A stretch of DNA of 64,000 nt from NCBI GenBank assembly GCA_945901265.1, contig CAMDJZ010000001.1:20458-84457 (forward strand), read 5' to 3'. Shown here piece by piece: positions 39,401 through 42,400 of the stretch (position 1 is its first letter; each line of letters starts with the position of its first letter). Under the pieces are notes generated by a model that was not told where the DNA came from, made no database searches, and was given only the letters and a program-made list of their open reading frames with translations. Source of the stretch: Rickettsia typhi. Its GTDB lineage: Bacteria > Pseudomonadota > Alphaproteobacteria > Rickettsiales > UBA1997. The translations under genes were made by a program, and so were the position numbers.

Positions 39401-42400
39401 GTGAGTTGATTATTACCAAATTTTCTTTATGATCTATTGCCTCTAATGATTGAATATTTTTGTGGATTTTAAGAGTGATTTGTTGAGGATTGCAAGATGA
39501 AGATGCTGGAGAAATTAGTGATTCTAATGCAATATCTTTTCCAGTAGAAAAAGATTTCAAAATTCCTTTAAAATCAAATTCCACTTGATCAAATTTTATT
39601 GAAAAATTTCGCGGAATTTTTATTTGATGACCGAAATAATTAATGAATCCTTGAATTCTTGCTTGATTAAATAATTCAAGAATTTGATCTTGTTGTTTTT
39701 TTGAAAAATTTTTAAATTGAAATGAACATTTTCCTTCTTTACCATCAAGATCTTCAACAAAGTTACTTTTTTGCCATTTTAAATCTTCACCATCAACGAT
39801 AATTCTTCCAAATAATTTTTGTTGCCAATTATCCATTCCTTCGCCATCAAATTCAATTATTTCTTCAACTCTTAATTCAGTATCCCCTCCCTTTTCTTCG
39901 CATTTTTCAATGCTCAATAAATCTGCTTTGGAAATTGATCTTAAATCAATAGCGATATTAAATCTCGATAAAACTGCAGGATCAACACTTTGCGATTTTA
40001 CTTCATCAATGCAGATAATTTTAACATTATTAGGAATTTCTACTCCATCGATGGTTCGCTTTGATTGATTATCAAACATGGTATTTGTTGCAACACGATG
40101 TTTATCATCAAATTTTTGCCAATCAATAATCAATAAATGTGTTTTTTGATCTTGTGATTTTGCTTGAGTAAAAAATTCAGCAAGCGGAGTTTGTGATGTT
40201 ATTTCTGAACTAGAAGCAGTAATTTTAATTGAGTCTTTAGTTATTGCCAAATCTTGCGGAGATTCAATAATGTGAAAAGATAAATTAGAATCTATGTCGA
40301 CAATTTCTCCAACAGATGGAGTTTTTTTGAAAAATAATAAATAATTTTTTAATTCTTGAAAATAGTTAGTTGTTAACAATAATGATTTTTTTTCAATGCT
40401 TTGAATGAAAATAGTTAAAGATTGTTTAAATTCTTGAAGATCTTTAGAACTTTGCAATTGATAAAGTTCTAAAATTTTTTCTTCAATAATTTGAAATTCA
40501 GGATCTTCTTGAGCTTGATTGAGCAAAGGCAAATCAGTATATAAAGGTCTTGCTGATTGAGGTAATATTGAAGGACTTGGATCAGGTGAACCCACTTTAT
40601 TATGAGGATTTTTTTCATCACCTATAGCATTAGGAGCTTGATAATTTACACTATTTTGGTAATTTAATTGAGATCGCGATCCACCTAAATCTAAAGTTAT
40701 CCAAACATCATTCTTGGTCTTAACCTCAAACAAAATGTGATTATTATTTACTCCAATGATTCTAAAATCTTGATTATATTGCAAATTAGCACCACAAAAT
40801 TTATTTGCTAATGCCATAACGCGATGTCGACAAGATCCTTTATTAGAAATATCAAAAAGTTGATCCAGCCATTCTTGGTTGTATTTTTCGCGAGTTGTTG
40901 TTGAGTTAGAATCGAAATTATAAATAGGTAAACTATATTGACTTTCAGCAATTGATAAAGGGAAATTTTGTTCATCACCTCCTCGATATATATTAATTAT
41001 TTGCTTAACTGAATCTGGTAAATCTTCTAAATCATCTTGAGGAGTTTTGCGATCTAATTCTTGACCTTTCAAAATATATTTGATTGTGCATTGCTGTTGA
41101 CATTCAACATAAAAAAATCCCGCATTATCTTTATAAAATTTTATGCCATCAACTTGTGGATTGGTAAAATATCCAACAATTTCATTATCAGGGGAAATTG
41201 ACAATAATTTACTTTTTATATTAGCTCTTAAATCTAAGGTAAATGAACAAAAACTATGAGTTTGTTTTTCGCTTTCTTCAGGAGAAAATTGATTAAAATC
41301 TACTTCGGATAAAATTACTGGAGCATTTATTTGTGAAGATCGATCATTATCCTCAGGAAGCCAATCATCACTTAATAAAGCATTTTTCAATTCAAGTTTA
41401 TTACTAGAATTTCTCATCATTAGATCAAACAATTTACCTTCTGGACGATTAATTATCTTACCAACATCAACCATATCAAAAGAATTATCGCCTGGAGATT
41501 TGGAAGCTCTGCATTTTCCTGCCTGATTTGCAATCTGCAATCTACCTCCTGACCTATTTTGCCGAGGTGGTTGAGGAGGTTGATTAGCTTGAGTAGCATC
41601 AAAAGCTCTTGATATTTCGCTATTTCCATAATCAACAGGCTCAAAAGCAAACTTCATTTTATCTAGAGATTCATCAATATCTTGTCTTCCAAAATAATCT
41701 TGATTAGCTCTTAAATGTTTTAGATTTGGAAATAGATTAATAACTTCAGTTAGTAATTGTTTTTTTCTATTATTAGTAGCTTCAGAATCTTCTGTTCTAT
41801 CTTCATCTCGTTCAAATCCTAAAATATTTAAACTGATAATTTTACCTGCATTAAGTTTTTCTTTGTTAATCAAATCTTGAATTCTTTTGAGAGATTCTTG
41901 ATTTAAATCCATCAAATAAAATTGAATTGGAGATTGATTTAATTGCTTTGACGAAACTTCGCTTAATTCAGTTTCAAATCGATCTTTATGTACTTCTTGA
42001 TAATTTGCTAGATATGTTTCTTGAGCTATATAAATAGAAGAACTAGATCCTAATGTTGTTTTTTTATGAGGAAGTTGTTCCTTCCAAAATTTTTCTGAAA
42101 TTTTTGCTTTTTTATCAAAAGAAAATTTTGCTAAATCAATTTTTCCTTCTTGATGTAATGTAATTAAAAAATCTTCAAATTGGGGTGTTAGTTTTGAGAT
42201 ATGAGTATGACTTTCTTGTATCTTAATTAAAATTTTTTCTAAAAAATCTTTTACCTCTTGATTTTCTATACCATGTTGAAGTATTTCTATTAAAAATACT
42301 GACATCACATCACGAAAAACACGAAAATCAGTAATAAATTTTTTTTGAGTTAGTTTATGAGATATTTCTTTTAATATTTTTGGATTATTTAGATTACTAC

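Follow-up and report, generated by a model that had tools for sequence, protein, structure and literature searches.

We analyzed a 64,000-nt stretch of an ordinary bacterial chromosome (contig CAMDJZ010000001.1; G+C content 30.5%; hereafter the window), in which a solitary giant open reading frame (ORF) lies on the minus strand between hemC and thiC, its immediate neighbors. The upstream side of this gene carries mreB, leuA, an S66 peptidase gene, nuoD and hemC, and the other flank carries thiC, the genes of a PAP2 lipid A phosphatase and of a sulfatase-family protein, and ffh. An earlier note, drawn from the sequence of the window, had placed a transglutaminase/papain-like Cys-His-Asp triad inside the giant ORF, at positions 40662-40874. 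The plus strand of that interval (71 codons) contains many stops and is non-coding; the minus strand translates as EWLDQLFDISNKGSCRHRVMALANKFCGANLQYNQDFRIIGVNNNHILFEVKTKNDVWITLDLGGSRSQLN, within the ORF at 36411..43931. The three residues are present in the giant ORF as the note had numbered them (C1034, H1065 and D1081), with sequence and residue numbers matching exactly on the minus strand. The analysis reported here points to a family of giant soluble proteins in which a beta-sandwich and a divergent transglutaminase-like (TGL) core stand on the same chain as two P-loop ATPase modules. The features of the window protein are the following, with residues given in amino acids (aa).

36411..43931, minus strand: giant ORF of 2,506 aa; soluble, with no transmembrane (TM) helix and no signal peptide evident
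41592..43931, minus strand: N-terminal region, aa 1-780; fast-evolving, with a size (650-860 aa) but not a sequence that is constant family-wide
40638..41489, minus strand: predicted beta-sandwich plus TGL module, aa 815-1098; AlphaFold2 model with alignment A1 at a predicted local distance difference test score (pLDDT) of 95.0 and a predicted template modeling score (pTM) of 0.91; conserved in 76 representatives
41046..41483, minus strand: predicted beta-sandwich sub-domain, aa ~817-962, from the DSSP strands of the AlphaFold2 model and from conservation
40656..40892, minus strand: predicted TGL catalytic core, aa 1014-1092, composed of two helices followed by four strands
40830..40832, minus strand: C1034, predicted nucleophile; first residue of helix 1034-1047, in a G-x-C motif, aligned to the TgpA Cys
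40737..40739, minus strand: H1065, predicted general base; opens strand 1065-1071 and the motif HILFEV, whose E1069 stands at H+4
40689..40691, minus strand: D1081, predicted third triad residue; directly after strand 1077-1080, in the motif W-x-x-L-D-L-G-G
38547..40484, minus strand: middle region, aa 1150-1795; conserved blocks, no recognizable fold
37902..38534, minus strand: P-loop module D, aa 1800-2010; Walker A GHSGVGKS at 1829-1836 and Walker B ILVIDEF at 1875-1881, then a sensor-like VVFLGN...GNR
37146..37769, minus strand: AAA_5 (MoxR/dynein-type) module E, aa 2055-2262; Walker A GDSGVGKS at 2087-2094 and Walker B VIVVIDE at ~2147-2153

Homologs were collected with an exhaustive HMMER scan, in which aa 800-1100 served as the query against 1.84 billion cluster representatives at a cut-off of E<=1e-3. 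The scan returned 76 representative homologs (38 at E<=1e-10), nearly all of 2,000-2,800 aa with the matching domain at about residue 700-1100, and 22-65% identical to the window protein in the TGL region; word-index searches with the domain and with alignment A1 retrieved nothing. The resulting family, which comprises at least 76 clusters at 50% identity, is unnamed and includes one cultivable Legionella species, whose chromosomal member (Legionella quateirensis WP_133141123 / KTD49162) is labeled 'AAA domain (dynein-related subfamily)'. Members appear in the sources as 'hypothetical', 'predicted ATPase' or 'GTPase', neither Pfam nor NCBIfam has a model specific to the family, only generic P-loop/AAA_5 models matching it, and an exact look-up of the giant protein returned no record. 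The window protein has a maximum Kyte-Doolittle value of 1.21 over 19-residue windows.

A core of ~1,450 aa (aa ~815-2260) is conserved across the family; outside it, the first ~800 aa and the C-terminal ~250 aa can be recognized in close relatives only. The TGL module forms the N-terminal half of this core and the two P-loop modules its C-terminal half; since the family-conserved core spans both, the TGL and ATPase parts always occur together in the family. No partner gene is conserved across nine genomic contexts of the family. A scan of a genome collection with the giant protein yielded only two short fragments (L001 and L002), in the lake alphaproteobacterial metagenome-assembled genome (MAG) Loclat_bin-00439; both cover aa ~1265-2027, at 75% and 68% identity to the giant protein, and they represent either two paralogs in one genome or a bin that mixes strains with different alleles. 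Four further distant loci, and no additional allele at the thiC-hemC locus, were found when metagenomes were scanned with module D. Among distant members, P0059 has many N-terminal ankyrin repeats and P0029 has C-terminal ankyrin repeats and a DUF5617 domain; their loci (L005 and L006) lie among Ank, Sel1 and IS66 genes, and a gene for an ABC-F-type ATPase is adjacent in both.

The putative triad is well conserved across the family. C1034 is retained in 75 of the 76 homologs, the remaining member having Gly instead, and H1065 in 75/75, while the position of D1081 is occupied by Asp in 66, Glu in five and Asn in four. Around these residues, G1032 (72/76), E1069 (73/75) and W1077, four positions before the Asp (66/75), all belong to the ~19 best-conserved columns of the 300-aa region, and other such columns near the site are R1037, R1057, G1083 and G1084. 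Alignment A1, with 35 sequences and a mean column identity of 30%, has four invariant columns, the Cys and the His being two of them. Because Cys and His are near-invariant and the third position is mostly acidic across homologs, the triad motif is not, on these alignments, a product of chance, and its conservation is the signature that a working catalytic center would leave. From this pattern we hold it likely that the predicted triad is catalytically competent.

The link to the TGL superfamily runs through relatives of the window protein. When 67 family cores were scanned singly, Pfam Transglut_core (PF01841, clan Peptidase_CA) matched 11 of them, with a best E-value of 1.9e-6, and was by far the commonest match; its clan relatives EDR1_CTR1_ARMC3_pept and DUF553 also appeared. 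A 650-aa relative, P0075, matches aa 899-1094 of the window protein (E 5.3e-4), in an alignment that begins inside the sandwich and spans the core. P0075 itself carries Transglut_core above the curated cut-off (26.7 versus 23 bits) together with DUF4129, that is, the TgpA-type architecture. On its contig of 2.7 kb, the gene upstream of P0075 (L009:1-663) is for neither MoxR nor DUF58 but for a protein with an adenylate/guanylate cyclase domain. With respect to the curated Pfam model, Transglut_core membership of the window protein is therefore transitive only, through such relatives.

A direct comparison of profiles gave a consistent picture. Solved TGL cores were taken from the PDB by means of a consensus TGL query and compared with the family by hhalign, profile versus single sequence. 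The family core aligned to the TgpA core (PDB 6g49) at a probability of 90.5%, or of 83.5% (E 8e-6) without P0075, and the maximum for 30 shuffled targets was 1.7%; the family profile built without P0075 aligned to the P0075 core at 98.1%. In the register to TgpA, GSC falls on GFC, NNNHILFEV on FDAHAWVEY and VWITLD on GWLSVD, so that the Cys, His, Glu, Trp and Asp all correspond.

The transglutaminase/papain core has its nucleophile at the N-terminus of a helix and its His and Asp on neighboring strands. In the AlphaFold2 model built with alignment A1 (prediction from the single sequence reached a pLDDT of 34), a beta-rich sub-domain is followed by helices, by helix 1034-1047, which starts at residue 220 of the model, by strands 1056-1061, 1065-1071 and 1077-1080, and then by D1081, so the modeled secondary structure is in the order and register expected of such a core. 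The beta-rich segment that the earlier note had seen ahead of the core corresponds to eleven strands of at least three residues in aa 817-962 of the model, with F897, L909, S911, F939, Y941 and Y952 as conserved residues. Low-complexity stretches lie on both sides of the module, namely QPPQPP in the linker just ahead of it (41565-41582, minus strand; aa 784-789) and a Pro/Ser-rich stretch beyond it (aa 1100-1140).

In the C-terminal half of the conserved core, Pfam AAA_5 matches aa 2083-2211 with 28.6 bits against a cut-off of 22, over profile positions 2-139 of 139. This is the sole curated match in the whole giant protein, and generic P-loop matches occur at aa ~1810-1850. Modules D and E are homologous (hhalign probability 94.8%) with Walker A and Walker B intact in both, and in module E the Walker B motif is followed by MIITSVN...GR...PAIKHRF. 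Pfam matches to RsgA_GTPase and nSTAND cover 25-70 residues centered on the P-loops and were not retained as family membership. Between the TGL and ATPase parts, the middle region contains the short patterns LLIIDW (1266-1271), AVLSRF (1319-1324), VVVLKGKF (1694-1701) and LYFIIEE (1723-1729); the resemblance of its blocks to degenerate Walker B, sensor and 'SRF' motifs does not extend beyond such patterns. Further degenerate AAA modules in aa 1150-1795, which would make up a ring of four to six modules, were considered and rejected, as hhalign between the blocks, Pfam and the PDB gave no support. The middle region also includes a low-complexity QASQASQASQ (39108-39137, minus strand; aa 1599-1608).

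Several results weigh against the interpretation of the giant protein as an ATP-coupled TGL enzyme. Pfam and NCBIfam searches with aa 800-1150 of the window protein returned nothing even at E<=10, so the profile hidden Markov model (HMM) check that the earlier note had proposed, taken alone and on this protein, fails: neither a Transglut_core nor an NCBIfam match is obtained. Sequence and profile searches of the window-protein domain against the PDB gave noise only. A Foldseek search of the PDB and BFVD, for which the complete two-domain model served as the query, yielded nothing at E<=1e-3; the 50 matches listed include no transglutaminase and concern beta-rich proteins (such as pyocin and phage fibers and aminopeptidase N), the top ones being weak and spanning ~70-120 columns each. 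By hhalign, the second solved TGL protein (3isr) reached 16%, in the His-Asp half only. The motifs are not fully canonical either: G-x-C, H-x-x-x-E and W-x-x-x-D are present as the earlier note had described, but the residues from the Cys onward read CRHRVMA (CRHR) in place of the canonical CxxFA. On the ATPase side, no fold was recognized in the middle region, either by Pfam in 14 members or by a profile search of the PDB, and no von Willebrand factor type A (vWA) domain was found in the protein, in the middle regions of the 14 members or in the neighboring genes. Lastly, the sole pointer to a coupling between the two halves is their constant co-occurrence.

On the other side stand four lines of evidence: the conservation of the triad, the transitive Pfam link, the hhalign scores with their shuffled controls and the secondary-structure register. 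Because of these, aa ~815-1095 very probably consist of a beta-sandwich followed by a divergent TGL (papain-clan) core, nearest the TgpA/YebA type, and we regard the assignment of the TGL fold itself as highly likely. The transglutaminase core proposed in the earlier note is thus supported by family conservation, by Pfam through relatives, by the profile match to TgpA and by the register of the model, and lacks a direct HMM match and a significant Foldseek match.

The second striking property of the giant gene is the divergence of its alleles. A metagenomic scaffold of 126 kb (L003; ENA ERZ28593839 scaffold_42) is syntenic with the window over 26.4-53.9 kb. Nucleotide identity between the two is 94-100% in the flanks, mostly 97-99% (about 98%), and 49-82% (about 63%) across the giant gene; the drop matches the giant gene exactly, its breakpoints falling within the 3' ends of hemC and thiC. 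Nine neighboring proteins are 87-100% identical. Protein identities between the window and the scaffold include the following.

MreB: 100%
NuoD: 99%
LeuA: 98%
Ffh: 97.8%
Giant protein: 48.7%

Conservation within the giant protein peaks in the ATPase modules (69-72% identity); the TGL core reaches 48% and nevertheless keeps the triad residues. Drift in situ was rejected as the source of this hypervariability, since synonymous sites would have stayed similar. The comparison indicates that the divergent allele arose by recombinational allele replacement or is an old balanced polymorphism. Sharply bounded allele divergence is typical of loci engaged in conflict. By analogy with such loci, so strong an allelic divergence against a genome background of ~98% identity suggests that the giant gene may serve in biological conflict (with phage, a competitor, or a eukaryotic host or grazer) rather than in housekeeping.

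Following the established chemistry of the TGL fold, C1034, at the N-terminus of its helix, would be the thiol nucleophile. Its activation would fall to H1065, which opens the next-but-one strand, and D1081 would orient the His. The Cys would form a thioester with a peptide bond or with the Gln side-chain amide of a protein substrate, and this intermediate would be resolved by water, giving proteolysis or deamidation, or by an amine, giving cross-linking. The ATPase part would remodel, unfold or license either the protein substrate or the enzyme itself, leaving the TGL core as the chemical output of the machine. The whole protein would then most likely be a TGL peptidase/transamidase complete in itself and driven or gated by ATP, the counterpart, on a single chain, of the operon-encoded MoxR-vWA-TgpA/YebA systems. 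We somewhat favor the coupling of the TGL core to ATP, and the explanation as a whole, namely an ATP-coupled enzyme with a TGL core and a role in conflict, is in our judgment the probable one. A bolder version is tentative and rather doubtful: the family may form a new self-contained class of ATP-dependent cysteine peptidase/transamidase, with a TgpA-like core and tandem MoxR/dynein-type AAA modules, adding a further independent union of AAA+ and peptidase and acting as a hypervariable conflict weapon (for defense, or directed at hosts or grazers) of low-GC aquatic alphaproteobacteria and Legionella, with alleles that are an ancient balanced polymorphism at a fixed locus.

Among the alternatives, the protein could be a translocated, host-targeting effector of the Legionella kind, its TGL core attacking a eukaryotic protein as a deamidase, a transglutaminase or a protease, in the manner of Cif, OspI and MavC, and its ATPase part serving another role inside the host cell. 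The presence of L. quateirensis in the family, the ankyrin repeats and DUF5617 of distant members encoded among Ank, Sel1 and IS66 genes, the lack of a signal peptide and of a TM helix, and the fast-evolving termini would all suit such a role. The window genome, however, looks like that of a low-GC alphaproteobacterium from the plankton whose housekeeping biosynthesis is complete (leuA, thiC, metK, speDE), and the closest named relatives of its Ffh are environmental MAGs ('Alphaproteobacteria bacterium', 80%; 'MAG: Rickettsiales bacterium', 70-72%). No secretion system lies near the giant gene, and a protein of 2,500 aa would be a large substrate for a type IV system. We find this alternative rather unlikely; it shares its chemistry with the ATP-coupled TGL enzyme proposed above and differs only in the place of action.

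The hypervariable locus bears on a second alternative, a single-gene, NTPase-regulated anti-phage system of the abortive-infection type, in which infection would be sensed by the ATPase or N-terminal part and answered by the TGL core as effector protease. An extremely diverged allele at a fixed locus with ~98% identical flanks fits this idea, as do the solitary gene without a partner, the soluble and apparently cytoplasmic protein, and weak matches of module D to nSTAND3/6/1 in Pfam and to mad8 in PADLOC. However, none of the 5,027 PADLOC models (PADLOC-DB 2.0) matched significantly: mad8 was the sole match, it covered the P-loop only, and its E-value was 0.0025 for the window protein and 2.2e-7 for the family member P0002. 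The neighbors are housekeeping genes and form no defense island, and the ankyrin-bearing and Legionella members suit a host-directed role at least as well. We find an anti-phage system of this type rather unlikely as well, and the ATP-coupled TGL enzyme remains our preferred explanation.

Cysteine protease domains are known to autoprocess large multidomain toxins, and the TGL core could similarly cut the giant protein and free its fast-evolving N- or C-terminal part. The conserved core does lie between two rapidly diverging regions, with low-complexity linkers on both sides (QPPQPP and the Pro/Ser-rich stretch). The N-terminal region is nevertheless of constant size (650-860 aa) and is not a swapped cassette, no toxin domain was detected in the window protein or in three other full-length members scanned, and the sequence bears no mark of a cleavage site, which together make autoprocessing improbable. 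It is very improbable that the domain has a TGL fold and is catalytically dead, serving as a peptide-binding or scaffolding module a role proposed for the inactive TGL domains of cilia: eukaryotes do have TGL domains without activity (PMC3495828), one member has Gly for Cys and the motif after the Cys is atypical, but Cys and His are near-invariant, with D/E/N at the third position, among proteins only 22-65% identical. Finally, a chance resemblance, with residues that form no triad in a region unrelated to TGL, would account for the missing direct HMM and Foldseek matches of the window protein and can be practically dismissed given the four lines of evidence for TGL membership set out above.

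Elsewhere in the window, a complete nuoD (33593-34783, plus strand) stands alone between the S66 peptidase gene and the rpmJ/hemC region, with no other nuo gene nearby in the window, and is arranged identically in L003. Overlapping genes at 46219-48910 (minus strand) encode the sulfatase-family protein (phosphoglycerol/phosphoethanolamine-transferase-like) and the PAP2 lipid A phosphatase; they look like a lipid A remodeling pair, adjoin thiC and the giant gene, and are kept in L003. A single ORF at 15642-16931 (plus strand) fuses an S-adenosylmethionine decarboxylase domain (AdoMet_dc) to a spermidine synthase domain, and a Pif1-like helicase (PIF1 and Pif1 2B domains) is encoded at 23641-24930 (plus strand) in a bacterial chromosome context. 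The gene at 4020-5726 (minus strand) for a PilB/MshE-type secretion ATPase (T2SSE and MshEN) makes it probable that the organism has type IV pili or a related system.

Among known systems, the papain-clan deamidase/transglutaminase effectors Cif, OspI and MavC resemble the giant protein in the general type of predicted catalysis and in a role that may be directed at a host. These are small, single-domain proteins without ATPase modules, and no sequence or profile similarity to them was found. The animal transglutaminases factor XIII and TG2 also have an N-terminal beta-sandwich followed by a Cys-His-Asp core, and the consensus TGL query retrieves them together with TgpA; they have, however, no detectable direct sequence match to the family, which is without their C-terminal barrels and Ca2+ sites. 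Lon and FtsH similarly combine an ATPase and a peptidase in one polypeptide, but their ATPases are of the classical AAA/Lon type and not MoxR/dynein-type, their peptidases use Ser-Lys or Zn in place of a papain-clan Cys-His-Asp triad, and their domain order and size differ from those of the giant protein. With midasin, dynein and RNF213 the giant protein shares a giant single chain with more than one AAA_5-type module in tandem; unlike them, it has two demonstrable modules, no MIDAS/vWA, stalk or E3 module, and a bacterial origin.

The closest parallel is the strict and very common operon described by Zhang and Aravind, in which the genes of a MoxR AAA+ ATPase and a vWA protein accompany that of a YebA-like TGL protein of the membrane (PMC3495828). 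These authors predicted that the three proteins carry out ATP-dependent degradation, with recruitment by vWA, unwinding by MoxR and cleavage by TGL; they noted that MoxR is nearer than any other prokaryotic group to the AAA modules of dynein and midasin, and listed at least six independent unions of AAA+ domains with peptidases (PMC3495828). Milani et al. reported in vitro transglutaminase activity for the TgpA domain and co-transcription of PA2875-PA2874-tgpA (PMC3507681). The coupling of a transglutaminase fold to AAA+ motors, which the earlier note had called unusual, is hence new as a fusion into one giant soluble chain but not as a partnership, MoxR-TGL operons having already been described (PMC3495828, PMC3507681). 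Our literature search found no description of a fused TGL-AAA_5 family.

The TGL-MoxR operon is very common yet functionally unexplained, and the link between its parts has been suggested to lie at the origin of the dynein-ciliary TGL connection. A family that carries TGL and ATPase parts on a single chain would help to test the proposed ATP-dependent TGL peptidase system, as mutations in one protein could probe how ATP controls cysteine chemistry, and its bounded, diverged allele points to conflict with phages, competitors or eukaryotic cells as a possible setting.

With TgpA/YebA of the MoxR-vWA(DUF58)-TGL system (P. aeruginosa, 6G49), the giant protein shares the G-x-C, H-x-x-x-E and W-x-x-x-D motifs. 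Of the two solved TGL cores compared, TgpA is the better profile match (83-90%), the bridging relative P0075 has its architecture, and in both a MoxR/dynein-clade ATPase would be the functional companion of the TGL core (PMC3495828, PMC3507681). In contrast, the TgpA/YebA systems consist of membrane proteins with the ATPase and vWA in separate genes, while the giant protein is one soluble chain with no detectable TM helix, DUF4129 or vWA and with an extra N-terminal region of ~800 aa and middle region of ~650 aa; no separate MoxR (AAA_3) or vWA/DUF58 neighbors were found at the window locus or in the other contexts examined. In our view the giant protein would work like the MoxR-vWA-TGL system, yet we do not file it as a member because two defining features of that system are lacking. 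What is new, judging from the domain composition, is a soluble giant chain that unites a TgpA-like TGL module with two tandem AAA_5-type modules and dispenses with both the vWA domain and the membrane anchor.

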